In this document: positions 10,190 through 62,428 of the stretch, one piece after another
How the letters are laid out: each line of letters begins with the position of its first letter
How positions within the stretch are numbered: the first letter of the stretch is position 1
DNA from: Candidatus Eiseniibacteriota bacterium
GTDB lineage: Bacteria; Eisenbacteria; RBG-16-71-46
Assembly (NCBI GenBank): GCA_963776245.1
Contig: CAVZLN010000003.1
Span: 352,001 to 416,000 of the forward strand
DNA length: 64,000 nucleotides
Direction of reading: 5' to 3'
Made by a program: the position numbers and the translations under genes
The notes under the pieces: model-generated
What the model saw: only the letters and a program-made list of their open reading frames with translations
What the model was told of the DNA's origin: nothing
Databases searched by the model: none

Positions 10190-10413
10190 GGGGCGGACTC
10201 CTTCAGGACGGGACGGGAGAAGGCGCGCGGAAGCACGATCCGAGGCCGCGAGGATACCCCGCGGCGCGGTGGTCCGTCGAGATTCCGCGGGCACGAGCCG
10301 CCGGAGACCAGGTCGAGGTGGGCCAGGCCCGGAGGGGCGCGTGTGGGTATTAGCACCCCGGAGGGTCTGGCCCACCTCGACCTGGTCCCCGGCGCGCCGC
10401 GACGGCCGGGCCG

Positions 10414-11085
10414 TCAGCGCACGGTGCAGAGACGGTAACCGATCCAGATGAGGATCAGCCCGATGCACTCGAGCACGTAGAGCACCTCGGTGAGGCCCAT
10501 GCGCGAGTACGCCCCCCCGATCCCGGGCAGCACCGCCCCCACCGCGATGAGGGTATTGCCCACCGCGAACCGGCCGGGCGAGCCCCGGCGCAGGTGCTGC
10601 CACACCGATCGCCCCGCGCCACCGATCAGGAAGATCACCGCATACAGGTTCGCGGGCGGGCTGAACAGCCGCACCCACGACCACACCATGACCTTCCCGC
10701 TCAGCCGGTGCGGCTCGACCAGCGTCAGGTCCAGCGGCCCCACGGCGACCAGGATCGAGGCCACCAGCAAGTAGGTCACCACGAGCACGGTCAGCCGGTT
10801 CGCGACGCGTCGTTCGAGGTGGAAGTACACCGAGCCCTGGGCCAGGGACACGCCGCCCAGGAGCGCCCCGGCGACGTACCAGAGCCTGAACATCGCCGGG
10901 CTCCACCCCGCCAGCGTCACCGTGCTCTCGCACAGGGTGCCCAGTCCGTAGATGTAGACGCCGGCCGCCCACCAGCCGAGATACGGCCGCCCCGGCTTCT
11001 CACGGTGGCGGCGGAGCAGGATGGTGCCGAGCACCGCGGAGAGCACGGTGGTGAGGATCGGAACGTAGCGGACGTATTCGATCAA
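10414..11085 (-). CDS. Uncharacterised ~6-TM membrane protein directly downstream of the 42-heme cytochrome
   Basis: Hydrophobic helices, WY..GALLGG..LAQG.VY motif; TTG start after GGAGG. Confidence 0.65.
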   Translation of the reverse strand: MIEYVRYVPILTTVLSAVLGTILLRRHREKPGRPYLGWWAAGVYIYGLGTLCESTVTLAGWSPAMFRLWYVAGALLGGVSLAQGSVYFHLERRVANRLTVLVVTYLLVASILVAVGPLDLTLVEPHRLSGKVMVWSWVRLFSPPANLYAVIFLIGGAGRSVWQHLRRGSPGRFAVGNTLIAVGAVLPGIGGAYSRMGLTEVLYVLECIGLILIWIGYRLCTVR

Positions 11086-11201
11086 GGGGCCTCCGGTGGG
11101 CGCGCATCCTACCCCGCGCGCCCCGGACACGTCACGCCCCGCCCCCGCCATCCGTGGCGGAGGGGCATCGTCCAGGGCTCGCGCCCGGGCTCGGACCGAG
11201 G

Positions 11202-14200
11202 CTACTTGTCCGGCGCGGGCTCCACCGACGGATCGTGGCACTGGACGCACAGATCGCGCTTCGGATCGTCCCGCAGCAACCCCTCGAACTCCGCGGCATG
11301 CGGCCGGTGACAGCTCACGCAATCGATCGGCTGACCGGTGCGCGGGTCGGGTCGCTTGCTCGTGGTCGGGTGGTAGTGCTTGGACAGATCGGAATGGCAC
11401 GTCTGGCACACCTCGGCCACGTCCTTGCCCACCATCAGCGCCTTGCTGTCGCTCGCATGCGGATCGTGGCAGGTGGCACAGCCGTTCTCGAGCGCCGCGT
11501 GCTTGAACTTGCCCTGCGTGAGCTTGCGATCGTGGCAGCTGAAGCACAGCCCGTCACCGGCCCGCGCCGTGAGCTTCGGACCCGAGCCGCCATGCGGATT
11601 GTGGCAGGCGAGGCACTGCTTCTCGCTCCTCACCGGCGCGTGCACGTTCAGGCGCGCGACCCAGGTCTTGGCCTGCTCGTGGCACTTGAAGCAGAGCTGC
11701 TGACCGGACACGAGCAGGGCCTTGCTGCCGCGCGCGGCATGGCACGAGGTGCATTCCCCGCGCACGAACGGCAGGTGGGGGAACGGCCGCATGAGCCCCT
11801 TCGCGGTCTTGGCCTGGACGTGGGGATCGTGACACGAGCCGCAGTCGACGGTCGCCAGCGCCATGCCCGGATGCTTGGCGATGAGCGCGGGCTTGGTGAG
11901 CGCGTGGCAGCCGGAACACACCGCGTTGCCGGCCTTGCGCGTGAGGGCCGGGTTGGCCGACCCATGCGGCGCGTGACAGGTGAGGCACAGCCCCATCGCC
12001 ACCGGCGGGTGCGGCTTGCCTGCGGCGATGCGTGCCGCGAGCTCGGTGTGGCAGCCCGCGCACAGATCGGCGGTCTTCTTCTTGAGGATGCCCACGCCCA
12101 CGCCCTGGTGCGGCTCGTGACACTTCGAGCACTCGCCATCCTTCACTGGCGCGTGACCGTGGGCGAGGTTCGCCTCGCGGGCGACCGACGCATGGCACGA
12201 CGCGCACAGGCGGTCCTGCGGCTTGAGGAGCAGCGCGGGCAGATCCGAGGCGTGCGGCGTGTGGCAGGCGACGCACCGTCCGGCCTTGACCGGTGGATGC
12301 ACCCGCGCGGTCGCGCTCCGGGGCCTGGCCACGTCATGGCAACGCCCGCACAGCGTGGCCAGCGGAGCCTGGAGGTTCTTCGCTCCCGGCACGCCCGGCC
12401 CGTGGCAGTTCGTGCACTTCTTCTCGGCGAATCCGGGATGGCTCTTCGCCGGCATGAGCGCGGCCGTCTTCGACTCGTGCGGGGTATGGCACGAGAGGCA
12501 CTTGCCCGCGGCGAGGTCGGCGCCGCCGTGCTTGGACTTGAAGTCGTCGTCCGCGGGGTCATGGCAGTCCGCGCACAGCGCGGGGACCGCCTTGAGGAGC
12601 GCGGGCGCGGCCGCGCCGCCGTGCGGGTCGTGGCATCCCAGGCAGTCCCCATTGGCGACCGGGGCGTGCACCTTGTCGCCGTTCTTGCCGATCATCAGGT
12701 GGCAGGTGACGCACAGCGCGCCGCCCTCGGCCTTGAGCAGCCGGGCGTTCGCCGAGCCATGGACCTCGTGGCACGACGTGCACCGGCCCTGCTTCGCGGC
12801 GGTGTGCGCCCCTTCGGACGCCACCTTCGCGGCGATGTCGTCATGGCATTGCGTGCACAGCTCGGGCGGCTTCTGGACCAGCAGCGCCTTGGTCTCCCCA
12901 CCGTGTCCGCCGTGGCAGTCCACGCACGCCCCGTCCGCCACCGGGGGATGCGGGTGCGCCGCCTTGAGCGACGCCCGCACCTCCTGGTGACAGCGCAGGC
13001 AGAGCTCGTTGCCCGGCTTGACGGCGAGCGCCGGGTTGTCGGATTGGTGCGGATCGTGGCATCCGGTGCAATTGCCGCCGCTGAAGGGCGTGTGGAGTTC
13101 CTTGCCCAGCAGCTTGCGCTGCGCGTCCGAGTGGCAGGTCAGACACAGTCCGCTCATGTCCTTGACGAGGAGGCGGTTCTCCTTGCTCGCGTGCGGGGCG
13201 TGGCAGCGCAGGCAGTCCTGCTTGGCCACCGGGGGATGCACACCCTTGCCCTCGCCGATGCGCTTGCCGAGGTCCGCGTGACAGGTCAGGCACATCGCGC
13301 CGTCCGCGGACCGCGTGAGCTTCGGATTCGCGGACCCGTGGGGATCGTGGCACGACGAGCACGATCCGTCCTTGAACGCCTGGTGCACGACCGGGCCGCC
13401 CGGATCGGTCACCACGTCCTCATGACACTGGCCGCAGAGGACCGACTGGCGTTCCTTGAGGAGCTTGCCGGCCTTGCCGCCGCGGTGCGGATCGTGGCAG
13501 CTCAGGCAGTCGCCGTCCGCCGCGGGCGGGTGCGGCGACTTGCGGGTCGCGACGTCCGCGAGCGCGCCGTGACAGGTGGTGCAGAGCGCGGGCACCGGCG
13601 CCACGAGCGCCTTGGTGACCACTTTGCCCTCGAGCACGTGGCACGCGTCGCACTGGCCCGCGGCCACCGGGGCGTGCGCCCCCGCGCGTTCGAGCTTGGG
13701 CGCGGCCGAGGCATGGGCCGAGTGACAGTCCAGACAGGCGAGCCCGCCGCGGTTCAGTTTCGCGTGCCCGGCCGCGACCGCGGAGCCGGGGTGGCAGGTC
13801 GCGCACAGCGCTTCACCGTCGAGCTTCAGGAGGCCGGCGTTCGGGCCGCCGTGCGGCAGGTGACACGCTTCGCAGTCGCCCCGGGCGAAGGGGACGTGCT
13901 GGTCGGCCAGCTTGGACTCCTGCGCGGTCGCGTCATGGCATCCGAAGCACGTCCGCGCGGGGCCGCCCTCGCGCACGAGCTTCGCCAGATCCGACGCGTG
14001 CGGGTCGTGGCAGCCGAGACAGTCGCCCGCGGCGAAGGCCGCATGTGCGTGCGCCGGAGCGGTGCCCGCCTTGAGGTCGGCATGGCAGTCGAAGCACAAC
14101 TCCTTCGCGCTCTTCTTGAGCACCAGCTTCTGGCTGAAGCCGTGGCTCAGGTGGCACGCGGCACAGTCGTTCTTCCGGACCGGCGCGTGCACGACCTTCT

Positions 14201-14363
14201 TCGCGAACGCCTTCTTCGCTTCCTGGTGGCAGTCGTAGCAGGTGCGCGCGGGCGCGGTCTTGGCGGAGGCCTTGAGCTGCAGCATGCCGGCCAGCGCGGC
14301 GACCGCGGCGAGGGCCAGGACGGCGACGAGCGCGCGGCGGACGCGCGGGGCCCGGGCGGTCAT
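11202..14363 (-). CDS. Giant 42-heme c-type cytochrome (paired-CXXCH repeat family)
   Basis: 42 CxxCH motifs counted by hand in 1053 aa; repeating H-x-P-x4-CxxCH-x-P-H...L-CxxCH unit; N-terminal signal or anchor sequence. Confidence 0.95.
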   Translation of the reverse strand: MTARAPRVRRALVAVLALAAVAALAGMLQLKASAKTAPARTCYDCHQEAKKAFAKKVVHAPVRKNDCAACHLSHGFSQKLVLKKSAKELCFDCHADLKAGTAPAHAHAAFAAGDCLGCHDPHASDLAKLVREGGPARTCFGCHDATAQESKLADQHVPFARGDCEACHLPHGGPNAGLLKLDGEALCATCHPGSAVAAGHAKLNRGGLACLDCHSAHASAAPKLERAGAHAPVAAGQCDACHVLEGKVVTKALVAPVPALCTTCHGALADVATRKSPHPPAADGDCLSCHDPHRGGKAGKLLKERQSVLCGQCHEDVVTDPGGPVVHQAFKDGSCSSCHDPHGSANPKLTRSADGAMCLTCHADLGKRIGEGKGVHPPVAKQDCLRCHAPHASKENRLLVKDMSGLCLTCHSDAQRKLLGKELHTPFSGGNCTGCHDPHQSDNPALAVKPGNELCLRCHQEVRASLKAAHPHPPVADGACVDCHGGHGGETKALLVQKPPELCTQCHDDIAAKVASEGAHTAAKQGRCTSCHEVHGSANARLLKAEGGALCVTCHLMIGKNGDKVHAPVANGDCLGCHDPHGGAAAPALLKAVPALCADCHDPADDDFKSKHGGADLAAGKCLSCHTPHESKTAALMPAKSHPGFAEKKCTNCHGPGVPGAKNLQAPLATLCGRCHDVARPRSATARVHPPVKAGRCVACHTPHASDLPALLLKPQDRLCASCHASVAREANLAHGHAPVKDGECSKCHEPHQGVGVGILKKKTADLCAGCHTELAARIAAGKPHPPVAMGLCLTCHAPHGSANPALTRKAGNAVCSGCHALTKPALIAKHPGMALATVDCGSCHDPHVQAKTAKGLMRPFPHLPFVRGECTSCHAARGSKALLVSGQQLCFKCHEQAKTWVARLNVHAPVRSEKQCLACHNPHGGSGPKLTARAGDGLCFSCHDRKLTQGKFKHAALENGCATCHDPHASDSKALMVGKDVAEVCQTCHSDLSKHYHPTTSKRPDPRTGQPIDCVSCHRPHAAEFEGLLRDDPKRDLCVQCHDPSVEPAPDK

Positions 14364-14845
14364 GGCTTCTGGACCGGCGCGACCTTCGACGAGTCGCGTC
14401 GGGCGACGATGGGCTCGTGATTGTCGAAATCGATCCGCAGGATCTTGAAGGCCAGCAGCGACCGGCGGCCGAAGTGCGGCGGCATGTTGAGGAACGCCCA
14501 GGTGGTGTCGTCGGGCGCGCCATTCTTGCGCACGAAGATGCGCAGCGCCGGGTTGTTGGGGGAGTTCGAGGCCGAGACGATCTTCCGCGTCTTCATGTCC
14601 ATGGTGAAGTCGGGCAGGAACTCGCGGACCCGCGCCGTGTACTCCGTGTCACCGATGCGGAACTCCTCGTCGAGGCGGACGGTGGCCTCGTCGTAGAAGC
14701 CCTTGAACACGCGATGGCCGACGCCGACCTTGACCGTCTTCACGCGCAGCTTCTGTGCCGCGGAGACGGCCGCCTCACCGAGCGCGGGGACGGCCAGCGC
14801 CGCGGCCAACACCACCACCCACCACACCCCACCACGGCCCTTCAT
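14360..14845 (-). CDS. Small exported beta-rich protein (DUF2155-like / ResB-periplasmic-fragment-like)
   Basis: Signal peptide; FLPDF.M...I.S.SN.PNNPA.I...W.F motif; ATGA-coupled on both sides. Confidence 0.55.
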   Translation of the reverse strand: MKGRGGVWWVVVLAAALAVPALGEAAVSAAQKLRVKTVKVGVGHRVFKGFYDEATVRLDEEFRIGDTEYTARVREFLPDFTMDMKTRKIVSASNSPNNPALRIFVRKNGAPDDTTWAFLNMPPHFGRRSLLAFKILRIDFDNHEPIVARRDSSKVAPVQKP

Positions 14846-15477
14846 GGCTTCCCTCCAGGGGCCGGCAAGGAGTCCGGACCCGCCGGGAGCCGGAACCGGC
14901 GGAACAGCTCCTCCGCGGTCTGCTCCGTGAGCCGCTCCAGACTGTGCACGCGTCCCCAATTGAATACCGTTTCGCGATCCTCACCACTGCGTACCCGCAT
15001 GGCGGTCCAGACCACACGGCCATCGGCACCACTCAGCAATCGCATCGAGACCCCGACGCTCGGCACATCGCCCTCCGGGGTGCGCACCGACTCGCAATTG
15101 AGGATGGCGCCCGTCATCAGATAGGCGGCCCTCAGGCGCTCGGCGAGTTTCACCGCCTGTTCGCTGGTGAGCATGCCGGTGGTGCGGATGCGGAACTGGC
15201 TCAGCCCGGCCTCGACGTCGCCGGGCTCCACCATCTCGCACGCGCCCGTCCGCCCGAGCGCGCCGAAGAACACGCGGGTGACCATCTCGCCCGGCTCGGC
15301 GCGGCCCGACAGGTTCTCGAGCGGCAGCATCGCCACCCTCTGCAGCGCGGGCGCGCCGGGCGCCCCGGGCGCGCCGGGCGCCATCACCGGCGCCGGCGCG
15401 GTCGCCGCGCAGCCGGCGACCGCGAGCGCCAGGGCCGCCGATCCCATCCACCGGAGCATGCTCATGCGCGCGCCCAT
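14842..15477 (-). CDS. CsgG/HfaB/DUF799-like lipoprotein
   Basis: Lipobox AVAG-C; RVAMLPLENLSG, G.I..., V.V.MRL....GRVVW pattern. Confidence 0.75.
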   Translation of the reverse strand: MGARMSMLRWMGSAALALAVAGCAATAPAPVMAPGAPGAPGAPALQRVAMLPLENLSGRAEPGEMVTRVFFGALGRTGACEMVEPGDVEAGLSQFRIRTTGMLTSEQAVKLAERLRAAYLMTGAILNCESVRTPEGDVPSVGVSMRLLSGADGRVVWTAMRVRSGEDRETVFNWGRVHSLERLTEQTAEELFRRFRLPAGPDSLPAPGGKP

Positions 15478-15482
15478 GGCGG

Positions 15483-16085
15483 TCAGAACGCCTTCTGCTG
15501 CAACAGCGCCACCGCTCTCTGGCACGCTTCCTCCGTCACCCGGCCGAACGAGCGCGAGCTCGCGCCGCCGATGACCGGCAGCCGTCCGCGGCCCTTGCCC
15601 GTCACCGAGATCCGCCACACCGTGTTCCCGGTCTGCACGTCCACCAGCTCGGCATCGAACGACACCACCGGGAAGTCCTCGCCACCGACACGCTGAGTGC
15701 CGTATTCGGTCACCGCGCCGCGGATGATGCCGGTGGCCTGCACCTTCTCGGCGGCGTCCTTGAGCTTGCCCGCATCCACGTTGCCCTGCATGTCGGGGAT
15801 GGCGCCGATGCGGCTGAGTTCGCCCGCGAAGGCCGCGGGATCCACCAGCTGGAAGCGGTCGGCGATCACCAGTTCGGTCACCATCGCGCGCGTCACGCGC
15901 GCGCCCGCGTACGGGTCGCCGCCCAGGCTGGCGAAGGGCAGCACCGCCACCCGCTTGTAGAACGTCATGTCGGCGAGGCGATTCACGTAGAGCCGCGGGG
16001 CCGCCGCGCAGCCCGTGATGGACACGGCGGACGCGGCGGCGATCGCGAGCGCAACCCAACGCTTCTTCCATGCAGGCATCGTCAT
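15483..16085 (-). CDS. CsgG/HfaB/DUF799-like lipoprotein
   Basis: Lipobox ITG-C; RVAVLPFASL, IIRGAVTEYG and LVDVQTGNTVW motifs; paralogous to the adjacent gene. Confidence 0.78.
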   Translation of the reverse strand: MTMPAWKKRWVALAIAAASAVSITGCAAAPRLYVNRLADMTFYKRVAVLPFASLGGDPYAGARVTRAMVTELVIADRFQLVDPAAFAGELSRIGAIPDMQGNVDAGKLKDAAEKVQATGIIRGAVTEYGTQRVGGEDFPVVSFDAELVDVQTGNTVWRISVTGKGRGRLPVIGGASSRSFGRVTEEACQRAVALLQQKAF

Positions 16086-17800
16086 CTCCCGAAGGACATC
16101 GTGAGGCTGGCATCGTACTGCCGGGACTCGCTCGGGGCGCCGTGATCGGCCACGCTCGCCCCGCCATTCAACGTGAGCCGCCGCGACAGCGCGCCGGCCA
16201 CTCGCGCACCCATGATCTCGCGGCCCGAGAGCTGGTTCGCCACCACGTCGGTGCGGGACTCCTCGCTCCGGGTCCAGTTGCCGGAGAACTGCCATTGCGG
16301 CAGCGGCGACCAACGCGCCGACGCCGTCCGCATCGAGGTGCGGGGATTCTCCCTGGAGAACGTCTCGTTCTGCGAATACGAACCTACCATCTCAAGAGTC
16401 CGGACCGGTTGCCAGCGGACGTCCACCGTTTGGGACCGCGAGTGCGCCGTGGCGCTGCCCAGCCGCGGCCCGACGCGGTAGATGCGAGTCGCGTATCCCA
16501 GCCTCAGGCTGCGCAGCGGGTCGGCATTCAGCCGTCCGCTCGCGTCGGTGTTCCAGCGCTGGTCCCGTGAGGCCGTGTCGCCACTCGCCGCCACCTGGAC
16601 GTAACCCTCCGCTTCGAGCCCGCGGGCCAGCTTCATGCGCGAGGACCCGCGGACCATCTCGGCCCAGAACGCGCCGCGCACCGGGTCCCAGTTGGTGGTG
16701 TGGGAGGCGCTCGCGACGCCATACCAGCCCGGGCGGACGTTGCCCTCGCCCGAGGCGACCGCGGTGGCGTAGCGGAGCAGGTCCTGTCCGTTTCCGGAAT
16801 TCACGGTCCGGGCCCCCGCGCCGGCCGTGAGTCGGACGCCGCGTGTGGGAGCGACATTGAAGTAGAGCGAGCCGTCCTGGTCGGTGGAGTTGAACCGGCG
16901 ACTGGTCACGGACGACGAGTGGCGCACGACGTAACTGGCGCTCAGATCGGTGATGAGCGAGGGACGCCAGGTCCCGCTCAGATTGCCGCCCTGGGTGCGC
17001 GACGTGTTGGTGGTCAGGCCGCCCCGCCGGTTGCGGGTGTCGCCGATGTCGTACGCCAGGCCCAGATTGCTGTTCGGGGTCGGCGCCATGTTGAGGCTGG
17101 CCCCGGCGCTGGCCACGCGCTGAGTGGCGACGACCGGGTCGCTTCCCTTGGGCTCGCGCCGCTGGTCGCCCAGCGAGCCGAAGAACGAGACCGGGCCGAG
17201 CTCGTACGCGGCGTGCGCGTTGCGGTTCACCGCCGTCTCATCGGGGCTCATCAGGTCCGCGGCGCGGTGGCGCCGCGCCCACGACAGGTCGACCCGCGGC
17301 AAGCTCGGCACGAAGACCGCCGCGCCCAATTGGGTGTCCTGGGTCTTGGCCGTGAAGCTCAGGATGCGCGCCGTGTCTCCGGGCTGGCTGAGGCCGCCCG
17401 GACTCACCCCGATCGTCGCCGAGGCCGGGCTGTGCGTGCCGTAGAGCGAGAAGACGGAGTGATTGAGGCGCAGGCTCCCCGCCGCGGTGCGGCTCGCGTC
17501 GGGCAGCTTCACGTAGGCGAGGTCCGTATAGCGCAGGTTCGACACCAGCTGCAGGTTCGGCCGCAGGAAGGCCTGGTGATTGAGATCGTAGGTCTGGATC
17601 CAGAACTCGCGCGCCCGGGTGACCATCCTCGACGTGCCATCCGGGTTCGTCACCCGGAGCGATTGCTCGTACCGCTGGTATTGCCCGGTCACGAAGCCAT
17701 ACGCGCCTTGCGCGCGCGCAGACCCCGCATGGACCAGCAGCGCGAGCAGCGCCACCGCGAGCGCGGATCGCGCCCCGCCCGTTCTGCTCTCACCGCGCAT
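16082..17800 (-). CDS. Putative outer-membrane beta-barrel protein
   Basis: Signal peptide (ARA-Q), S/T/N/R-rich alternating amphipathic strands, C-terminal YDASLTMSF beta-signal-like end. Confidence 0.75.
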   Translation of the reverse strand: MRGESRTGGARSALAVALLALLVHAGSARAQGAYGFVTGQYQRYEQSLRVTNPDGTSRMVTRAREFWIQTYDLNHQAFLRPNLQLVSNLRYTDLAYVKLPDASRTAAGSLRLNHSVFSLYGTHSPASATIGVSPGGLSQPGDTARILSFTAKTQDTQLGAAVFVPSLPRVDLSWARRHRAADLMSPDETAVNRNAHAAYELGPVSFFGSLGDQRREPKGSDPVVATQRVASAGASLNMAPTPNSNLGLAYDIGDTRNRRGGLTTNTSRTQGGNLSGTWRPSLITDLSASYVVRHSSSVTSRRFNSTDQDGSLYFNVAPTRGVRLTAGAGARTVNSGNGQDLLRYATAVASGEGNVRPGWYGVASASHTTNWDPVRGAFWAEMVRGSSRMKLARGLEAEGYVQVAASGDTASRDQRWNTDASGRLNADPLRSLRLGYATRIYRVGPRLGSATAHSRSQTVDVRWQPVRTLEMVGSYSQNETFSRENPRTSMRTASARWSPLPQWQFSGNWTRSEESRTDVVANQLSGREIMGARVAGALSRRLTLNGGASVADHGAPSESRQYDASLTMSFGR

Positions 17801-19214
17801 AGTTGATGGTGTAGGTCTCGCTGCCGTGGCACGTCGGCGTGCACGTCCCTCCGGTCGTCGTCTCGGTGTAGGCCTGCATCCCCGGCGTGCGGCCGGTGAT
17901 GATCAGGTGCTTGCGCGTGGTGGATCCGTGGGTGGTGTGGCAGGCGTAGCACGGGTAGCGCTCGCTGCCCACGTGCGAGGCATGGCCCCGGCTGAACCCG
18001 GGCGGGTTGAAGCGCGAATAACCCTTGGTGGTCGAGCTCGAGGCGCTGTTCGCGTAGACGTCGTACCTGTGACACACGAAGCAGATCTCGTTCGAGGCCA
18101 TGGTGCGGCTCGCCGACGACGCGGTGTACGGCGCCTTGAGGATGTAGCGGTTGGCCGATCCATGCGGCCCGCGCGTGGTGCCGAAATCGCTGCCGTGACA
18201 GTCGGTGCAGCGCGTGGTGGAGAGCGCGCTCCACCCGGTCACGAACGCGAGCATATTGATGTTGGTATTGCGCCCGAGACCCTCGATCGGATGGAACGAG
18301 GGATTCGCGGGATTGAGCACGCGCGCCATGTCGGTCTGGCCCGCCGGCTGCGTGGTCCAGGAGGAGTGGCACTTGAAACACAGCGAGTACTCGGCGGTCG
18401 GCGCGGAGAGCGTGTCCGAGCCGGGCACGAAGGTGTAGCTCGGCGCGCTGCCAGCCGCGCCGTTGAGAACGGTCACGCGGCTCGCGCCCAGGATCCTCTT
18501 CGACGCGTCGCTCCCGGACGGCGGGAAGAAGTCGGCCCGCGAGACGTGCGGATCGTGGCAGTCCGGGCACTCGGCGTGACGCCGGTTGACCGGCGTGGTG
18601 CCGAAATCGGAAGGCAGCGACTCGAGCGGCCCGGTGTGACGGCCGGTGTAGTCGGTCACGGGGTGACGGTAGGTCTTCTGGACCTCGAGTTGGATGTTGG
18701 TGAGCGCCGGGCTGCCGTCGTGGCACGTGAGGCAGAGCTTCTCCTCGCGCTGGAGCATCAGGAACGGGATGGTCCCGCTGACATCGGACCAGCCGTGCGG
18801 GTCGTGGCAATTGAGACATTTTCCCGCGGCATCGGGCTCGATGCGCTGGGGAGGGATGGGCCCCGGCCAGATCATCGAGGACTTCGAGCCGTGCCCGGTC
18901 CCCGAGAACAGGGCCTGTCCCGCCAGTGACCCGCCCGCCCAGGGCGTGGCGTGGCAGGTGAGGCACAGCGCGTTGTCGTCGGGGGCCATCAGCAGATTGC
19001 CGAGGGGCGCGGGCTGCCCTTCTCCGTGCATCGAGTGGCAGCGGTCGCAGTCGCCCACGTGCGGGCCCGTACCGAGGATGCTCGAGATCTGCTCGGGCGC
19101 GCGGGGTGGACGCAATCGGGGCGCGGCCGACATCAGCACCAGCGCGGCGGCGGCGGCGAGCACTGCCGGTAGGACTCTGCCGCGGAATCCGTCGCTCCCT
19201 GCCCACTCGCGCAT
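17790..19214 (-). CDS. Multiheme c-type cytochrome (9 CxxCH plus one CxxxCH)
   Basis: CDRCH, CLTCH, CLNCH, CLTCH, CPDCH, CFKCH, CTDCH, CFVCH, CYACH and terminal CTPTCH; N-terminal hydrophobic stretch. Confidence 0.9.
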   Translation of the reverse strand: MREWAGSDGFRGRVLPAVLAAAAALVLMSAAPRLRPPRAPEQISSILGTGPHVGDCDRCHSMHGEGQPAPLGNLLMAPDDNALCLTCHATPWAGGSLAGQALFSGTGHGSKSSMIWPGPIPPQRIEPDAAGKCLNCHDPHGWSDVSGTIPFLMLQREEKLCLTCHDGSPALTNIQLEVQKTYRHPVTDYTGRHTGPLESLPSDFGTTPVNRRHAECPDCHDPHVSRADFFPPSGSDASKRILGASRVTVLNGAAGSAPSYTFVPGSDTLSAPTAEYSLCFKCHSSWTTQPAGQTDMARVLNPANPSFHPIEGLGRNTNINMLAFVTGWSALSTTRCTDCHGSDFGTTRGPHGSANRYILKAPYTASSASRTMASNEICFVCHRYDVYANSASSSTTKGYSRFNPPGFSRGHASHVGSERYPCYACHTTHGSTTRKHLIITGRTPGMQAYTETTTGGTCTPTCHGSETYTINYAR

Positions 19215-19242
19215 GATCATCTCCGGCTCGTGCACAACGGTG

Positions 19243-19268
19243 CGGTGCGGACCCGAAGGTCCGCACCG
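19243..19268 (-). terminator. 11-bp stem with cUUCGg tetraloop downstream of the OmcS-like gene (stabiliser or partial terminator)
   Basis: Minus strand CGGTGCGGACC-TTCG-GGTCCGCACCG, perfect stem; no strong U-tract. Confidence 0.7.
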
Positions 19269-19319
19269 TCCATTCAGGATCGGGCTGCGGCCGCCCGCTC
19301 CGTCGTCAACAATTCCGGA

Positions 19320-20324
19320 TCAGGCGCCCTGCCGGTGGCACTGACGGCACATCTCGCGGAATGTACCGCCGTCTCCCTCGTCTGTCACCGTGCCCGTGCC
19401 CTTCATGTAGATCAGGCCGAACCCGTTGGCATTGCCGTGCGCCTTGTGGCACGTGAAGCACGAGGGCGTCAGGGTGTTGTCCGTCGGCGCCCCGGTCCAC
19501 AGGCCCTGGGAGTCCATCATCTTCAGCCTGTTCGTGTAAGCGGCGTACTGCGTCAGCGAGCTGCCCGTCAGGTTGGCGCCAGCCGTCGGGTGGCGGATGA
19601 AGTCCGTCCCGTTGTTCATGTTGGCGTCGGTCTCCAGACCGTGGAACAGCACGTGGCAGTTCTGGCACCACGCGCCGTACGCGCTGTTGGTGGGATCGGG
19701 CTCGTTGAAGTCCACGTCAGCCGGCCCGTAGCTCGCCGGTCCGCCGCGCTCCCACACGTCCGCCGTCAGGTCGTTGGCGCCCGACACGTAGGTGATGGTG
19801 TCGCCGAAGAAGAGCCCCGCGCTCGTCCGGAACCGGAGATTGCGGTAGGCGACGTTGCCATGCACCGAGTGGCAGGTGGTGCACACCAAGCCGTCGGTCG
19901 AGGGGACGTACAGGCTGCCCGTGCCGCCCGGAGGCGTCGCGGTCGAGAACAGGGTGTGGCCGTCGATCTCGTCGTACCCGGCGGGATTGGTGAGCGGCGG
20001 GTGGCCGGCCGCGACATTGAGACCGCCTGCCTGCCGAGCGGTGCCGGTGATGTTGTCGCCGAACACGTCCGGAGCCCAGGCGATGCCGTCGTGGCACGAG
20101 AGGCAGAGATTCACTTCCGTGTTGCGGAGCAGACGGCCGAACGGGCCACCGGTGCCGAGCGGGGTGTAGATCCCGCCGCTGGTGTAGCCGTGCTGCATGC
20201 TGTAGTGCGCGGTGTGGCAGTCGCTGCAGATGAGCGTCGTGCTCTTGTGGTAATCGCCTGCCATGGCCACGGAGGCCACGCCCACCAGCAGCAGGGCCGG
20301 CAGGAGTACGATCAGGCGCTTCAT
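19320..20324 (-). CDS. OmcS/OmcT-like hexaheme c-type cytochrome (candidate nanowire subunit)
   Basis: Sec signal (AMA-G); 6 CxxCH with OmcS-like context: YH-x6-CSDCHTAH, LL..CLSCH, GH..PPGG..CTTCHSVHG..YRNL, WCQNCH..FH..RHP, CFTCHKAH, CRQCH at the C-terminus. Confidence 0.85.
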   Translation of the reverse strand: MKRLIVLLPALLLVGVASVAMAGDYHKSTTLICSDCHTAHYSMQHGYTSGGIYTPLGTGGPFGRLLRNTEVNLCLSCHDGIAWAPDVFGDNITGTARQAGGLNVAAGHPPLTNPAGYDEIDGHTLFSTATPPGGTGSLYVPSTDGLVCTTCHSVHGNVAYRNLRFRTSAGLFFGDTITYVSGANDLTADVWERGGPASYGPADVDFNEPDPTNSAYGAWCQNCHVLFHGLETDANMNNGTDFIRHPTAGANLTGSSLTQYAAYTNRLKMMDSQGLWTGAPTDNTLTPSCFTCHKAHGNANGFGLIYMKGTGTVTDEGDGGTFREMCRQCHRQGA

Positions 20325-20447
20325 GGATTCACTCCTTCAGTGGACGACTGGAACGGAACTGGGTGTCCGATGGGAACGACCGTGACTACCTGCGGAACCG
20401 AGCGGCACCTCCTTTCGGGCCGCGGGCTGCGGCACGGACGCGCATGA

Positions 20448-21482
20448 TCAGCGTACCCACATCAGCTGGAACCGGCTTCCCGCGTTCTCCGCGAGCGCCA
20501 ACAGTCCCTTGCCATCGCTGGCCAGCGCGCTGGGGTTGATGAACTCACCGAGACCCACCCCGAACCCACCCACTGCCCCCAACAGGCTCCCGGCCGAATC
20601 GAAGACCTGGATCGAATGCCGGATCGCATCGCTCACCCACAACCGCCCATCCCCCGTGACCGCGATGCCCGACGGGAACGAGAAATTGCCGGGACCGATG
20701 TCATGCACACCGAAGCCCCGGATGTAACCACCCCTGGAATCGAAGATCTGGATCGCGAGCTGGGTGCGCGCGCATCCCACCACCACGTCGCCCGCGGGCG
20801 TGAGCGCCATCGAGGAGATGGCCGAGAGCTGTCCGGGGTCGGCCCCCGACGTGCCCCACGCGCCCTTGAACCGGTAGTCCGCGTCGAACTGGTAGATCCG
20901 GCCCTCTTTCCCGCGCGCCGCCACCCAGATGTCGCCGTCGGCGCCCACGGCGAGCACGCCGGGGCCGTGGCCGCCCGCGATGGTGTCGTCCGGCGCCGGC
21001 AGGCGCAGGCGCGCGACGGTGCGGCCGCGATAGTCGACCACGTCGACGTACGAGGCGAGCAGGTCGGAGACGAGGACGTTGCCCTCGCGATCCACCGCGA
21101 GGAACGCCGGCAGCCCGTCATGCGTGTCGGAGCCCGCCGGGCCGGGCACGCGATGGACGAAGTAGCCACGCGGGAAGGTCTTGAGGTCGAAGAACTCGAC
21201 GCGGTGGAGGTTGGTGTTGGCGACCACCACCTCGCCATGCTCGACGTCGAGGGCGATGCCCTGCGGCCCGCTGAAGTAGGCACCGCCGTTCGCGTATCCG
21301 AGCACCAGCACCGAATCGATCCCGGGCTCGTCAGCCGCGCGGCACGGGGTGACCAGCGCACCGATCGACAGGCTGGCCAGGAGCAGGGCACCGCTGGCGC
21401 AGGCCAGACCGCGACCCACCCGCTGGGCGGGGGCTCCGGTCCGGTAAGCCCGCTCGCGAGTCCGGCCCTGCTGACTCGCCAT
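20448..21482 (-). CDS. NHL-repeat beta-propeller protein, exported
   Basis: FSGPQGIALD, FSFPSGIAV..DG.LWVSD...IQVFD and FINPSALA repeats; GGAGGAGG RBS. Confidence 0.9.
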   Translation of the reverse strand: MASQQGRTRERAYRTGAPAQRVGRGLACASGALLLASLSIGALVTPCRAADEPGIDSVLVLGYANGGAYFSGPQGIALDVEHGEVVVANTNLHRVEFFDLKTFPRGYFVHRVPGPAGSDTHDGLPAFLAVDREGNVLVSDLLASYVDVVDYRGRTVARLRLPAPDDTIAGGHGPGVLAVGADGDIWVAARGKEGRIYQFDADYRFKGAWGTSGADPGQLSAISSMALTPAGDVVVGCARTQLAIQIFDSRGGYIRGFGVHDIGPGNFSFPSGIAVTGDGRLWVSDAIRHSIQVFDSAGSLLGAVGGFGVGLGEFINPSALASDGKGLLALAENAGSRFQLMWVR

Positions 21483-21590
21483 GGCGACCTCCTCCGAGGG
21501 GACAGCGCGACTGGCTGCGGTGGTCTGGTCCCACCCGGCTGCGGGAGGGGGACTGGGCGCGGTTCGCGCCTTGTTCCACAGTTCACTAGG

Positions 21591-21605
21591 GCAATGCTTG
21601 TGCCA
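21591..21605 (-). promoter_or_regulatory. Sigma-54 (RpoN) -24/-12 promoter for the cytochrome operon
   Basis: Minus strand TGGCAC-AAGCA-TTGC exactly matches TGGCAC-N5-TTGC, ~110 bp upstream of the NHL start in an AT-richer intergenic region. Confidence 0.85.
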
Positions 21606-21727
21606 TCCGTAGTTACACGGAGTGCACCCCTTGATTATCGACTCAATCCCACTGGGGCGCAACGGATAAGGGGGGCAAGTCCGGGGCGCCCCGGAGAGGC
21701 GATCGATCCCGGCCCGTGGATTCCGGA

Positions 21728-21776
21728 TGACAGGCTGGCATATGTGCCTATCCGCTTCCTGACAGACTGGCCTACG
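21728..21776. repeat. Imperfect 17-bp direct repeat (candidate enhancer-binding-protein sites)
   Basis: TGACAGGCTGGCATATG (21728) and TGACAGACTGGCCTACG (21760), 14/17 identical, 32 bp apart. Confidence 0.5.
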
Positions 21777-22113
21777 CTGAACATTCGCACGCACATGGAG
21801 GGCACGGCGCAGGTGGAATATGATGCCAGCCGCACCGCCTCGGGGGAGCCGGATCCGGCCCCGCGGACCCGGCGCCGCCCGGCCCGCCCCACCCGCACTA
21901 ACTCCGCGCGGTCAGCGAAGGTGCCCGTCGAGGCGGCGGGGCGTCCTCGGCCCTGTCACGAGCGCACACCGCATCGGCCTGTCATGCCCATGACATCGAT
22001 GGCGGGGGCCGATCCGTCGACCCATGCACCCGGTCCACCCCGGGCACGAATCTCGCAGCATGCACGGCGGTCGCTCCGCCGCCGCACGGTTTCAACCCCC
22101 AGAGGTCCATGAC

Positions 22114-24315
22114 ATGAACCCCGGCGATCTGCTGGTCCGACTCGGATTCCTCACCGCTGCGGCTGCGACCGTCCTGTTCTTCCCCGCCCTGCGCGGCCGC
22201 TCGCGCGCCACCGCCGGCGCGTGGGTATTCACCGCGCACACCGCGATGCTCCTGATCGCGCTCGCGCTGCTCGCGTCCCACTTCCTCGCTCATCGATTCG
22301 AATTCGCCTACGTCGCGCAGTATTCGTCGCGCGCGCTCTCGCCCGCGCTCACGTTCGCTGCGCTGTGGGCCGGCCAGGAAGGCAGCATCCTGCTGTGGGC
22401 CGCGATCGGGGGCGCACTCGGCCTGTTCCTGCTGGTGCAGCCCGGGCCGCTGAGCCGCCCGGCGATGTTCTTCGCGAGCCTCGCGCAGGTGTTCCTGAAC
22501 CTCCTGCTGATCGTGCGCAGCCCGTTCGCGCTCAGCGCGGTCGTCCCGCCCGACGGCCAGGGGCTCAATCCCCTGCTCGAGGACCCGTGGATGGTCACGC
22601 ATCCGCCGGTCCTGTTCATCGGCTACGCCGCCATGCTCATGCCCTTCGCGCTCGCGGCCGCCGCCCTGGTGCGCCACGAGTACCGGGACTGGAACCGGCA
22701 GGTGTGGCCATGGACGCTGTTCGCGGTGGTGACCCTCGGCACCGGGATCGTGCTCGGCGGGATCTGGGCCTACAAGACGCTGGGCTGGGGCGGCTACTGG
22801 GGCTGGGACCCGGTCGAGAACGCGTCGCTGGTCCCATGGTTGCTCGCGGTCGCGCTGCTCCACGGACTGCTCATCCAGCGCACGCTCGGTGCCATCGTGC
22901 GCACCAACCTGGTGCTCGCGATGCTCGGCTGGGCGACCACCATCGGCGGCACCTACCTCACCCGCAGCGGCGTGCTCGCCGACTTCTCGGTGCACTCGTT
23001 CCCGGATACCGGGCTCACCCTGCCGCTCACCGCGTGGCTGGTGCTCACCACGTTCTTCGGTGCCGCCATGCTCGGCGCGCGCTGGCGCACCATCGACGCC
23101 AGCAGCGCGAACTGGATGAACGTGAGCCGGGAGACCGCCCTGTGGCTCGGTCTCATGACCGTGCTGGTGTTCGCGGTGCTGGTGGCGATCGGCACCACCA
23201 TGCCGCTGCTCACGTCGATCGCGGGCAGACCCGCGAACGTGCAGAACACGTTCTACCACGGCGTCTCGGTGCCGCTCTGCCTCGCCATCCTGCTGCTCAT
23301 GGCACTCGCGCCCGCGCTGCGCTGGACGCGGCAGCAGGGGCTCTCGTGGCTCACGCTGCTGCCGCCCGGCCTGGTGGCGGGCGTGGTCGCGCTCGGCATC
23401 GCGGTGCCCGCGGGGCTGCGCGATCCGATGTGGCTGGTGCTGCTGTTCGCCACCGCGCTCGCGCTCGGCGTCAATCTGTGGATGGCGATGCGCCTGTTCA
23501 ATCGCGGGTGGATGTTCGGCGCCGGATACCTGGGCCACGTGGGCGTCGCGGTGATGGCGCTCGGCATCGCGGTCTCCGCCTCGATGGGCAGGACGGCGCG
23601 GCTGACGCTGCCACAGGGCCAGCCGGTGACGTCGCTCGGCTACACGCTCACCTTCGCGGGACACCAGACCGACGCGCGCGGCGCCAAGCACCTGGCGGTG
23701 CGCGTCGAAAAGGGCTCCTACGGATTCGACGCCCGCGCCAAGCTCATGGAGTCGCCGCGCGGCGACGGCCTGATCCGCAACCCGGCCATCGACCTGATGC
23801 ACGACATCTACCTGTCGCCGCTCGACGTGAAGAAGCCCGAGGTGACCCCCGAGAACGGTGCGACCTGGCTGCCCAGGAACCAGCGGGTCGAGGTGGCCGG
23901 CGTGGGCTACACGCTCGAGGCTCTCCGCATGGAGAGCGGCAAGGAGATGCGCGCCTATGCCGACATCTCGGTGCAGCGGGGTGACCGGACGATCCGCGTC
24001 TCGCCCTACCTGCTGGCGGGCCCGCAGGGCTCCCAGCCGGTGAGCGCCAGCGTCCCGGAGCTCGGCGAGGTGAGCATCGTGCGCCTCGACGCCGACAACG
24101 GCCGCGTCGCCGCCATGCTCCCGGGCGCGGTGGCCTCCGGCGGCGAGATCGCGCTGGTGGAGTTCAGCACCAAGCCGCTGGTGAACCTGGTGTGGATCGG
24201 CGCGCTCCTCACGCTCCTCGGCGCGGCGTTGGCGGGGATACGGCGCGCCTCCGAGCAGCGCGCCCAGGCCACGCGAGCGCCGCGGGTCGCGCAGGTGAGT
24301 CCGCAGACCGCCTGA
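22114..24315 (+). CDS. ccmF: Cytochrome c heme lyase CcmF/NrfE family
   Basis: WAGQEGS.LLW, GLNPLL..PWM..HPP, WGGYWGWDPVENASL (WWD domain), LTRSG and SVHSF motifs. Confidence 0.92.
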   Translation: MNPGDLLVRLGFLTAAAATVLFFPALRGRSRATAGAWVFTAHTAMLLIALALLASHFLAHRFEFAYVAQYSSRALSPALTFAALWAGQEGSILLWAAIGGALGLFLLVQPGPLSRPAMFFASLAQVFLNLLLIVRSPFALSAVVPPDGQGLNPLLEDPWMVTHPPVLFIGYAAMLMPFALAAAALVRHEYRDWNRQVWPWTLFAVVTLGTGIVLGGIWAYKTLGWGGYWGWDPVENASLVPWLLAVALLHGLLIQRTLGAIVRTNLVLAMLGWATTIGGTYLTRSGVLADFSVHSFPDTGLTLPLTAWLVLTTFFGAAMLGARWRTIDASSANWMNVSRETALWLGLMTVLVFAVLVAIGTTMPLLTSIAGRPANVQNTFYHGVSVPLCLAILLLMALAPALRWTRQQGLSWLTLLPPGLVAGVVALGIAVPAGLRDPMWLVLLFATALALGVNLWMAMRLFNRGWMFGAGYLGHVGVAVMALGIAVSASMGRTARLTLPQGQPVTSLGYTLTFAGHQTDARGAKHLAVRVEKGSYGFDARAKLMESPRGDGLIRNPAIDLMHDIYLSPLDVKKPEVTPENGATWLPRNQRVEVAGVGYTLEALRMESGKEMRAYADISVQRGDRTIRVSPYLLAGPQGSQPVSASVPELGEVSIVRLDADNGRVAAMLPGAVASGGEIALVEFSTKPLVNLVWIGALLTLLGAALAGIRRASEQRAQATRAPRVAQVSPQTA

Positions 24316-24526
24316 CGGTCGGGGAGGTCGCGCGCCCGCGGGTCCGGTCACGGATCCGCGGGCGTTCCCTTTTCAACGCACACACGTTTTTCCGCTGACG
24401 CGGACGCGTGGACCCGCTAGGTTGACGGCGGACGCGGGCCACCGAGGGTCCGCTTTCCGCAGTCGCTCCCGCGCGCGGCAGCCCCCGTGCGCCAGGTCGC
24501 CACACCCCAGGGACGAGGTGCCCCCC

Positions 24527-26629
24527 ATGCGATGGTCTCCGATCCTTCGCGCGCTGTTCGCTGTCCGCTCCCTACGCGCCCCGCTGCTCGCCATGGTCGC
24601 CGCGCTCACCGTGCCGGTCGCCGCGCTCGCGCTCACCGGCAACGGGAAACTCCAGATCCACCACATCGATGTCGGCCAGGGCGACGGCATGCTGCTGGTC
24701 TCCCCCAGCGGACAGACCGCGCTGTTCGACGACGGCAACTACCTGAACTGCAGCGGCATCAAGGCCTACCTCCAGGGGCTCGGTGTCACCTCGGTGGACT
24801 ACCATTTCTGCAGCCACTACCACTCCGACCACCTCGGCTGCATCGACGACCTCGCCGCCGTGAACATCGTGATCGGCACGGCCGGGTGGGATCGCGGGTA
24901 CTCGTACTCGTCCGGGACCTACACCGCCTACGTCACCACCCTCGGCGCCCGGCGCCGCACGCTCGTCAAGGGCCAGGTCGTCACCCTCGACTCGCTCGCG
25001 GCCGACCCCGTGCGCATCACCTGCGTGGATCTCAACGGCGCGGGCGTGTACTCGCCCACCGGGGCCGACGAGAACTCCAAGAGCGTGGTCCTCAAGGTGA
25101 CCTATGGCGCGTTCGACGAGGTCATCGCCGGGGACCTGACCGGCGATCCGGCCAGCGGCAATGATGTCGAGACCACGGTCGGGCCCGAGGTGGGCGACGT
25201 GGAGGTCTACAAGGTCCACCACCACGGCTCGCGCTACTCGAGCAATGACAACTGGCTCACCGCGGTGACGCCCGAGGTGGGGATCATCCAGGTCGGCAAT
25301 GGCAACTCGTACGGCCACCCGACACTCGACGCGCTCACGCGCCTGCACAACCACGGCGTGAAGACCTATTGGACCGAGACGGGCGCGGGCGCCACACCCG
25401 ATCCGGCGTGGGACAAGGTCGCCAACGGCGCGGTGGTGGTGGAGGCCGTCCCGACCGCGGGGGGCACCTTCACCGTGACCGGCAACGGCTTCGCCGACAA
25501 CTACACCATCGGCGGCGGGGGTGGCCCGGTCTACTCGAGCGACACCCGCGTGGCTTCCTCCGTCACGATGCTCCAGGGCACCGTGACCTCCGGCTCGGTC
25601 GCCAACCTGGCGGCCAACGACGCCTCCCGCACGACGGTCACGTCCGCCAAGGTGGGCACCACCTACCGGACCGACTGGTACGGGTCGGTGGTGCTCGCCC
25701 ATCCCGCCACCTCGCTCACGCTGACGTACGACGGGAATCACTCGGTGAGTCGCACGCAGACGCTGCACCTCTGGAACTGGACCACCAGCGCGTGGGTCCA
25801 GGTGGACCAGGCCACCGTGAGCACCAGCGACGTCACGCGCAGCTTCACCACCACGAGCCCGGCGGTCTATGTCTCGCCGGCCGGGGAGGTGCGCGTGCGC
25901 GTGCTCGCCAACACCCGGTCGTCCTCGTACACCTGCCGCGCCGACTACCTCGCCATCCGCTACCAGTACCTGCAGGGCACGGGGATCACCCTGCCGATCG
26001 CCGACTTCCGCGCCTGGCCGGCCATCGAGGATCGCGACCGGCTCTATCTTCCGCAGTCGGTCCTGCTGCGGGCGGACGCGGCGGCGGACGAGCGCGGCGC
26101 GGTGCTCACCTGGTCGGTGCTGAAGACCGATCACGTGGACGGGTTCAACGTCTACCGCGAGGATGGCGAGGGGAACCGGGTGCATGTCGGCGAGGAGGCG
26201 CTCATCGACCTGGCCGGGAGCGAAGCGGTGTTCCGCTACGTCGACCCCGCGGGCGCGGCGCTCGGGGGGACCTACTGGCTCGGGGCGCGCTCGTGCTCGG
26301 GGCCCGAAGGCCTGATCGGGCCATTCCAGGTCGTGCCATCCTCCGGCGCGACGGAGCTCGCGCTGGCAGTGAGTCCGAACCCGGCGCCGCGGGCGGCGCG
26401 GCTGTCGTTCACTCTGCCTCGCGAGTCCGCGGTGCGACTGTCGGTGTTCGACCTGCAGGGCCGTCGGGTGGCGACGCCGTTCGCCGGGCTCGCGCCGGCC
26501 GGTCCCAACGCGGTGGAGTGGAGCCTGCGGGACGAGAGCGGCCAGCGCGTCCGGCCCGGGCTCTACTTCGCGCGGTTCGAGGGTCTGGGGCGCACGTGGG
26601 TGACGCGGGTGATCGTGACCGACCGTTAA
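24527..26629 (+). CDS. Secreted ComEC-type metallo-beta-lactamase-fold hydrolase with beta-sandwich and FlgD-Ig C-terminal domain
   Basis: [24 protein letters not shown] and NSYGHP motifs; C-terminal PNP..F.L..V.L.VFD.QGR.V..PGLYF. Confidence 0.8.
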
Positions 26630-62323: not shown

Positions 62324-62428
62324 GCGGGGTGTCCGGCGCACGCCCTGCGCGCGCGGCGGGTGGCTCAGACTAGGGGGTCGCGGCCCGCGCGTCGAGTGCG
62401 CCGCGGCGGGCGCCGGCGCGGCGCCCCG

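Follow-up and report, generated by a model that had tools for sequence, protein, structure and literature searches.

A compact, rearranged relative of the Geobacter osc cluster in a genome of Candidatus Eisenbacteria

What might a bacterium do with an operon that joins 58 heme sites to an outer-membrane barrel and a pair of lipoproteins? The question is raised by a 64,000-nucleotide stretch of an assembly labelled Candidatus Eiseniibacteriota (GCA_963776245.1, contig CAVZLN010000003.1, positions 352,001 to 416,000 of the forward strand), which we call the window. Because the window has about 72% G+C and many spurious open reading frames (ORFs), third-position GC was used to pick the real genes, and this places eight of them in a single minus-strand operon at 11202-21482. 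They run in the order NHL propeller, hexaheme cytochrome, 10-heme cytochrome, beta-barrel, lipoprotein 1, lipoprotein 2, small exported protein and 42-heme cytochrome, and the genes, order and strand given in a preliminary description of this DNA are all present. Comparison of sequences and gene order firmly places the operon as a homolog of osc, the omcS-companion cluster of Geobacter sulfurreducens (GSU2504-GSU2493; contents as given in the available text of PMC13194489 and PMC12977616), with which Geobacter reportedly makes and exports conductive OmcS filaments. With a probability of roughly 0.62, we read the operon as a compact, rearranged relative of that cluster, whose products bring a hexaheme cytochrome of the OmcS type onto the outer membrane, or across it, and provide its wiring to the periplasm.

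The hexaheme cytochrome (19320-20324, minus strand) is a precursor of 334 residues with six CXXCH motifs and a signal peptide that ends in AMA ahead of GD. Its family has 615 database matches, of which the best 120 are all at least 52% identical. A single-sequence phmmer search of the Protein Data Bank (PDB) returned nothing meaningful, and a 31-member family profile searched against 177,635 PDB sequences returned OmcS as the sole significant match [6ef8/6nef, E = 1.6e-5; runner-up E = 0.09]. A genuine OmcS cluster for comparison came from the phylum of locus L031, in which 301 genomes were searched and 12 regions fetched; the hexaheme of one of these genomes (G126, loci L090 and L091) matches OmcS 6ef8 over residues 1-407 (E = 3.5e-112). 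The window hexaheme aligns by BLASTP with the OmcS homolog of L091 at 25% identity (E = 2e-9). The main high-scoring segment pair keeps the order of CXXCH motifs 1-5, and a second one (E = 0.07) aligns the sixth, C-terminal motif. Outside the motifs, H26, H40, H123, H155, H228, H245 and H296 align with histidines of OmcS or of this homolog. H40, three residues past the first heme motif (CSDCHTAH), is invariant in the 31 members and aligns with OmcS His16, which ligates heme 5 of the neighbouring subunit in the filament; the CXXCH histidine of heme 5 itself falls at OmcS residue 332 in the profile alignment, which fits this bridging. As judged from heme motifs and distal histidines in OmcS-like order, the protein is a member of the OmcS-like hexaheme group, and by homology it may polymerise into an extracellular filament.

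The kinship extends to the genes that surround it. In the available text of PMC13194489, oscC is GSU2501 and oscI is GSU2495, and OscH is assigned to folding, OscE, OscF and OscG to secretion and OscD to morphology; the corresponding part of PMC12977616 gives GSU2495 as a 26-heme protein and describes an eight-gene block, GSU2500-2493. After its OmcS homolog, L091 encodes a YncE-type propeller (467 residues), a 738-residue protein without a Pfam family, a 218-residue lipoprotein, a 382-residue protein with a lipoprotein-like C-terminal domain, a SurA/peptidyl-prolyl isomerase (PPIase) protein (558 residues), a 26-heme and a 16-heme cytochrome and an NHL protein. The labels OscD-like to OscK-like that we apply to these L091 genes follow from gene order and from three anchors in the available text of PMC13194489, not from sequence identity to the Geobacter proteins.

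Against this cluster, residues 7-654 of the 42-heme cytochrome (11202-14363, minus strand; 1053 residues, 42 CXXCH motifs, 21 Paired_CXXCH_1 units) align with the OscI-like protein and its 26 hemes (E = 5e-107), while residues 659-1043 do so with the OscJ-like protein and its 16 (E = 5e-57). Since the match falls into two parts and 26 + 16 = 42 hemes, we regard the 42-heme protein as an OscI-OscJ fusion of genes that stand separately in L091. The family of lipoprotein 1 (15483-16085, minus strand; 200 residues, lipobox ITGC) matches the 218-residue OscF-like protein (hhalign probability 99.8%, E = 3e-29), and that of lipoprotein 2 (14842-15477, minus strand; 211 residues, lipobox VAGC) matches the C-terminal domain of the 382-residue OscG-like protein (98.9%, E = 2e-17). 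The NHL-repeat propeller at the head of the operon (20448-21482, minus strand; 344 residues, N-terminal hydrophobic signal, Pfam NHL E = 2e-18) matches both NHL-type propellers of L091 by BLASTP (upstream propeller E = 2e-10, OscK-like E = 4e-8), which is weak evidence of OscK kinship because NHL repeats are common. The run from barrel through two lipoproteins and the small protein to the giant cytochrome follows the order in which L091 carries its OscE-, F-, G-, H-, I- and J-like genes. What the window shares with osc is an OmcS-type hexaheme, an NHL propeller, OscI-/OscJ-like giant cytochromes and a large outer-membrane protein followed by two PelC-like lipoproteins, in the same order from barrel to giant cytochrome. 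The likeness to the G. sulfurreducens omcS neighbourhood that had been noted is, when set against a genuine OmcS cluster, one of true homology. Bridging forms also speak for the kinship: among the 77 related loci described below, the same hexaheme family has an OscD-like neighbour in 7, an OscE-like one in 5 and an OscH-like one in 2, and these loci are labelled Planctomycetota, Acidobacteriota, Thermoanaerobaculia or deltaproteobacteria, none of them Eisenbacteria.

We also asked how often the arrangement recurs. The hexaheme family profile was run against one genome per species, which gave 173 stretches, of which 77 loci were kept (many of them cut by contig ends), and the presence of each cluster gene in these loci was scored by tblastn with the window proteins. 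The NHL protein was found in 67 of the 77 loci, the 10-heme cytochrome in 66, the 42-heme cytochrome in 60, lipoprotein 1 in 55, lipoprotein 2 in 53, the small exported protein in 43, the barrel in 36 and an adjoining CcmF-like gene in 29. All eight operon genes occur together in 29 loci, and all except the fast-evolving barrel in 39, so that the arrangement lies far beyond chance. The first six barrel-less loci that we examined all have an ORF of 475-601 residues directly upstream of lipoprotein 1, and four of these six ORFs have at their end the aromatic residue that typifies outer-membrane proteins. The complete gene order is also found in other phyla, of which many belong to the Fibrobacteres-Chlorobi-Bacteroidetes (FCB) group. 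Metagenome-assembled genomes (MAGs) labelled Ca. Eisenbacteria supply 29 of the 77 loci, including all the closest ones (62-53% identity); the remaining labels include Zixibacteria, Latescibacterota, Krumholzibacteriia, Gemmatimonadota, Ignavibacteria, Fibrobacteraceae, Planctomycetota, Armatimonadota, Acidobacteriota and deltaproteobacteria, and a few (for example Saccharimonadales and Hyphomicrobiales) look like binning errors. Within the window's own phylum the hexaheme gene is carried by 64 of 206 genomes, by 43 of the 121 of high quality and by 26 of 83 genera.

These relatives also bear on the host, which had been proposed to lie outside the Geobacter lineage. For every cluster gene the best relatives come from MAGs labelled Ca. 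Eisenbacteria, which places the host outside Desulfuromonadia and makes Ca. Eisenbacteria its most likely lineage; the Atlas clusters nearest the small protein and the barrel are likewise commonest in Ca. Eiseniibacteriota. The genus has a single further genome, and there the hexaheme match (G398:C14:634960-635950) is split between two frames at about residue 65, which might reflect a frameshift or a fault in assembly. Three to five hexaheme-family copies in tandem, reminiscent of omcS/omcT, were seen at G002:C16:91740-96426 and G001:C130:47007-51534, and one copy in the G002 array contains four in-frame stops.

Several results weigh against the reading of the operon as an osc relative that builds a filament. 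By tblastn at E 1e-4, neither an OscD-like nor an OscH-like protein has a match anywhere in the genome, and a Pfam scan found no rotamase or SurA domain in the operon; the YncE-type propeller and the SurA/PPIase protein of osc are both missing from the window, and the idea that the locus is a complete osc-type system has to be given up. The barrel (572 residues against 738 for its counterpart in L091) has no demonstrable sequence similarity to the OscE-like proteins: the BLASTP match to that of L091 covers 89 residues at E = 3e-4, and hhalign of the barrel family against those of L091 and L089 gives probabilities of 0.95% and 8.6%, none of which is significant. The hexaheme is present in single copy and, at 334 residues for the precursor against 407 for mature OmcS, is about 100 residues shorter. 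Its AlphaFold2 prediction, made without hemes from the 31-sequence alignment, gave no usable model [mean predicted local distance difference test (pLDDT) 41.6], which leaves the claim of polymerisation resting on one conserved histidine and on homology. Among the Geobacter paralogs wire formation is known for OmcS only, according to the available text of PMC12977616, and studies cited in that of PMC13194489 found OmcS not to be required for Fe(III) oxide reduction or anode growth. Finally, the order hexaheme, 10-heme, barrel, taken with the fold of the barrel, also fits a porin-cytochrome conduit.

Such a conduit is the main rival. It would be of the Mtr/Pcc type and make no filament: the 10-heme cytochrome would sit inside the 28-strand barrel as MtrA does in MtrB, the hexaheme would be a surface monomer or small oligomer, and the lipoprotein ring and the 42-heme protein would be accessory. 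The order putative surface cytochrome, 10-heme, barrel is that of mtrC-mtrA-mtrB, and the genes of the 10-heme protein (17790-19235, minus strand; 481 residues, likely start ATG at 19220 or 19214) and the barrel (16082-17800, minus strand) overlap by 11 nucleotides. The barrel is well modelled by AlphaFold2 (mean pLDDT 89.8, 28 strand elements), and its top fold match by two methods is MtrB [6r2q_B; Foldseek TMq 0.48; VIA-align Z 15.3, root-mean-square deviation 9.3, 401 residues]. The 10-heme protein is highly conserved, with 49-65% identity in 37 of 38 aligned homologs and with its nine CXXCH motifs and C-terminal CX3CH (GGTCxxxCH) invariant in 41 aligned sequences, and nothing in the Geobacter-type cluster clearly corresponds to it. 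As in MtrCAB, the window could plausibly provide a multiheme path through the outer membrane.

The sequences themselves argue the other way. We rejected the 10-heme protein as a member of the MtrA/DmsE family (57.6 bits against a TIGR03508 cut-off of 192.2; MtrA chain 6r2q_A at E = 0.53), and neither a single-sequence phmmer search nor the family profile found a significant solved relative for it in the PDB. None of 31 barrels matches MtrB_PioB, whereas the OmcS cluster of L091 has a separate MtrB_PioB porin besides its OscE-like protein; other large barrels lie within 1 Z of the MtrB match. No Pfam family was found in the window copy of the barrel, one of the 31 members had one weak match, and the barrel profile found nothing by sequence in the PDB; Atlas returned unnamed barrels only, together with a lead to the PEP-CTERM-associated outer-membrane family TIGR03016 at 0.96. 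The lipoprotein ring and the OmcS-like subunit are without Mtr counterparts, and rings of the PelC type are known to serve secretion and are not known in electron conduits. We consider a conduit without a filament rather unlikely as the whole explanation, and note that the osc-type reading and an Mtr-like conduit can be combined.

The lipoproteins bear most directly on how a cytochrome could be secreted or anchored. They had been described as CsgG-like, which stands at the level of the PelC/LpoB/CsgG superfamily and fails for CsgG proper, since PelC is the closest solved structure. The best solved relative is PelC 5t11 (5t11_A, E = 2.5e-11) for the lipoprotein 1 profile and PelC 9h80_C (E = 5e-16) for that of lipoprotein 2; matches to the PelC structures 5t11, 5t10 and 5t0z lie between E = 2.5e-11 and 7e-9, followed by GNA1162 and LpoB. 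Among the homologs, the LpoB Pfam family is matched by 38 of 46 (lipoprotein 1) and 24 of 43 (lipoprotein 2) and the GNA1162-like family by 10 of 46 and 4 of 43, while CsgG (PF03783, E <=0.01) is matched by 12 of 46 and 13 of 43, always alongside LpoB or GNA1162 matches; the window's own two lipoproteins have no CsgG match at E 0.01. On these profile comparisons they are PelC-like rather than CsgG proper. CsgG also forms its own pore, whereas the window has a separate barrel gene.

PelC is a dodecameric lipoprotein ring around the PelB porin, which is 16-stranded. As in PelBC (9h80, 5t10, 5t11, 5t0z), the window lipoproteins carry lipoboxes and are encoded next to an outer-membrane barrel. In contrast to PelBC, the barrel is one of about 28 strands, a pair of paralogous lipoproteins (hhalign of the two families, E = 5.5e-43) takes the place of a single one, no pel genes or tetratricopeptide-repeat protein lie in the operon or its flanks, and the presumed cargo is a heme protein instead of a polysaccharide. 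A two-chain fold of the mature lipoproteins gave ipSAE 0.58 against 0.00 for the best control, with contact agreement of at least 82% between runs and partner pLDDT of at least 76. Of 157 solved complexes 116 score high enough to pass, and of 215 mismatches 2 do; the present score is a weak pass, at or below 0.60, a range that holds only 18 of the 157 solved complexes but both of the passing mismatches; because PelC rings have already been solved, the pass may show likeness only. In two low-GC loci from the phylum of L031 (L079:14373-17525 and L084:16872-19591), three successive genes encode PelC-like lipoprotein domains. Instead of a 6-heme OmcS, these loci have cytochromes of five to seven hemes whose sequences start with KV(S/R)G-x-C-x-N-CHTMH.

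Where the Geobacter-type cluster has OscH, the window has the small exported protein (14360-14845, minus strand; 161 residues), a member of an unnamed family. A conserved core of about 115 residues contains the invariant positions R45, D66, F80, N98, W116, P123, H124 and F133. Pfam gave no convincing match (four different chance-level hits, in one member each, E = 0.008-0.04) and the PDB none. It has 263 database relatives, and among the 120 listed all those that bear a name are termed hypothetical. Two candidate identities were rejected, DUF2155 (an Atlas lead scoring 0.83, below trust level) and an OscH-like homolog (hhalign 0.2%). Among the loci examined, the small protein (43 loci) and an OscH-like protein (2 loci) never occur together, and the former may functionally substitute for OscH.

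The window departs from osc in further additions, namely the small exported protein, the 10-heme protein with its CX3CH, a sigma-54 promoter and a CcmF paralog of its own. The heme sites number 58 (6, then 9 CXXCH and 1 CX3CH, then 42), which upholds the total counted earlier and corrects its motif, one site being CX3CH. Opposite the operon, a divergent gene (22024-24315, plus strand) encodes the CcmF that had been proposed there, a heme lyase of the CcmF/NrfE type with 763 residues and the Pfam domains Cytochrom_C_asm and CcmF_C, which falls short of the equivalog cut-offs for CcmF. The genome has a canonical CcmC-CcmE-CcmF set on another contig, C9, which makes the CcmF beside the cluster a second copy; ResB was not found in the genome. 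By analogy with the dedicated lyases of non-standard heme sites, such as NrfE for CXXCK, the extra CcmF may act on the 10-heme protein at its invariant CX3CH site.

The promoter takes the -24/-12 form TGGCAC-N5-TTGC and lies about 110 nucleotides upstream of the NHL start (TGGCACaagcaTTGC, 21591-21605, minus strand), where it is the sole zero-mismatch match within the 64-kb window. Of 60 related loci, 31 have a sigma-54 motif with at most one mismatch close to the start of the NHL gene, compared with 3 of 164 control windows, a recurrence that bears out the promoter as first described. RpoN and at least 22 strong enhancer-binding proteins are encoded in the genome, none of the latter within the window. 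The motif points to sigma-54 control of the operon. The successive spacers from NHL to 42-heme are 123, 84, -11, -4, +5, -4 and -4 nucleotides, which implies tight coupling of the last five genes and of the 10-heme/barrel pair and agrees with the mostly translational coupling claimed at the outset.

That filaments form and are exported, which partners take part and which way electrons run are all inferred, and the osc-type reading can be laid out as follows. Sigma-54 and an enhancer-binding protein would switch the operon on. Sec would export all products, as their signal peptides and lipoboxes suggest, and the general Ccm system would load heme, perhaps with the adjacent extra CcmF acting on the 10-heme CX3CH. 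The paralogous PelC-like lipoproteins would ring the 28-strand barrel under the outer membrane as PelC does around PelB, ring and barrel forming a pore, an arrangement proposed because the lipoproteins are homologous to PelC and to OscF/OscG. The hexaheme would pass or plug this pore and polymerise head to tail, each subunit donating a histidine to heme 5 of the next, as in OmcS. The 42-heme OscI-OscJ fusion, perhaps with the 10-heme protein, would conduct electrons through the periplasm as far as the filament's base, and the NHL propeller and the small exported protein are probably assembly or chaperone factors.

A further alternative keeps this hardware and runs it inward, for electron uptake from Fe(II) minerals, other solid donors or partner cells. 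Sequence sets no direction, and the available text of PMC8478452 lists Eisenbacteria among taxa with iron-cycling genes and Zixibacteria and Ignavibacteriales as having both oxidation and reduction genes; both of the latter are also among our related loci. In Desulfovibrio ferrophilus IS5, the clusters DFE_0448-0451 and DFE_0461-0465, which encode multiheme cytochromes with NHL propellers as the window does (a likeness by description only), are proposed in the available text of PMC5815863 to form an outer-membrane cytochrome complex and are linked there to electron uptake. The studied homologs, OmcS and osc, have however been described in the context of electron export, and menaquinone genes lie around the cluster, low-potential quinones being suited to anaerobic respiration, which is a weak point on the same side. 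We judge inward flow unlikely. That the operon is instead a periplasmic multiheme module for respiration or storage, its barrel and lipoproteins serving an unrelated export, is very improbable: the 42-heme protein may be periplasmic and its first ~85 residues (window 14106-14333) have a borderline NapC/NirT-family match on which we do not rely (E = 8e-4), but translational coupling ties the barrel and the two lipoproteins to the cytochromes, the lipoproteins co-occur with them in 53-55 of 77 loci, and homologs of the lipoproteins sit inside a genuine OmcS cluster.

A stronger NapC/NirT match (E = 9e-10) occurs in a 17-heme frame at G000:C3:494704-494964, and such matches may mark the entry of quinol electrons. 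That frame belongs to one of three further multiheme loci in the genome (3.56 Mb, nine contigs, 92% complete), at G000:C3:494566-506299 (17+8+19+4 hemes), G000:C3:519011-522362 (13+2 hemes) and G000:C3:741528-745728 (28+20 hemes); the genome holds 16 multiheme frames with 196 CXXCH motifs in all. Genes of the futalosine route to menaquinone flank the cytochrome cluster on both sides [5111-5959 (+), 8960-10190 (-), 46700-47842 (-), 58655-60853 (-) and 61415-62341 (-)] and encode a VitK2_biosynth protein, MqnC (425 bits against a cut-off of 428.1), a second CofH/MqnE-like radical SAM protein, UbiD and UbiA. Their position may be chance or may tie quinone supply to the cluster. The mqnC gene upstream of the cluster is 81% identical in locus L004, where it lies on the cluster's other side; MqnC was seen in 1 of the 77 related loci and was rejected as part of the module.

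The preliminary description had drawn the cluster from 10414 to 24315, limits that hold for the operon and not for the lowest gene. This gene (10414-11151, minus strand) encodes a seven-transmembrane (7TM) protein of 245 residues with a weak HisKA_7TM match (E = 2.6e-5), 50 nucleotides downstream of the 42-heme gene; it was seen in 1 of 77 related loci (L028) and was rejected as a part of the module. A scan downstream of the 42-heme gene found no terminator or sigma-70 promoter. Among the sequencing runs listed as containing the locus none is of RNA, and seven DNA runs from three studies contain small portions of it. Beyond the CcmF gene, the window encodes a 735-residue protein (24422-26629, plus strand) with a ComEC/metallo-beta-lactamase-like N-terminal part and a C-terminal type IX secretion system (T9SS) sorting/FlgD-Ig domain, of which matches to the C-terminal tail only (residues ~637-734) lie beside the cluster in 4 of 77 related loci. 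Farther away, a 987-residue protein (36822-39785, minus strand) joins GH18, polysaccharide deacetylase and GT2 domains, an unusual fusion for the handling of a chitin-like polymer.

An osc-type system was published for Geobacter by Shen et al. (2025, Cell Chem Biol 32:239), under a title that calls it widespread. In the literature searched we found no description of the compact cluster in Eisenbacteria or FCB-type phyla, or of the PelC link, although Shen et al. 2025 and its supplements may hold both; on Eisenbacteria respiration, we found no paper beyond gene-list mentions. We know of no cultured member of Ca. Eisenbacteria. We rate the kind of system as already published for Geobacter, and its compact, rearranged form in Eisenbacteria as a new variant.

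The secretion and assembly of cytochrome filaments are described as an unanswered question in a 2025 preprint. The comparison suggests which osc parts are kept across phyla, namely the hexaheme, the barrel, the two PelC-like lipoproteins, the OscI/J cytochrome and the NHL protein, and which are dispensable or replaceable, namely OscD and OscH; PelBC, a solved export complex to which the lipoproteins are thereby linked, can serve as a structural model of the pore. We put forward tentatively, as a possibility that we would not yet favour, a fuller proposal: that a two-paralog PelC-like ring and a 28-strand barrel form the secretion and anchoring pore for a folded, heme-loaded cytochrome polymer and are related in evolution to exopolysaccharide export rings, that the small protein replaces OscH, that OscI and OscJ have become one 42-heme periplasmic cable, that a private CcmF serves the CX3CH site under sigma-54 control of the whole, and that conductive filaments are made by about one-third of Eisenbacteria and by many Zixibacteria, Gemmatimonadota, Ignavibacteria, Latescibacterota and Planctomycetota. 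A sigma-54-controlled OmcS-type cluster in 64 of 206 genomes of the phylum yields the testable hypothesis that Eisenbacteria of soil and sediment swap electrons with minerals or partner cells. Cytochrome "nanowires" may be made well outside the classic metal reducers and, if the secretion-pore proposal is true, would be common among the uncultured phyla of soil and sediment.

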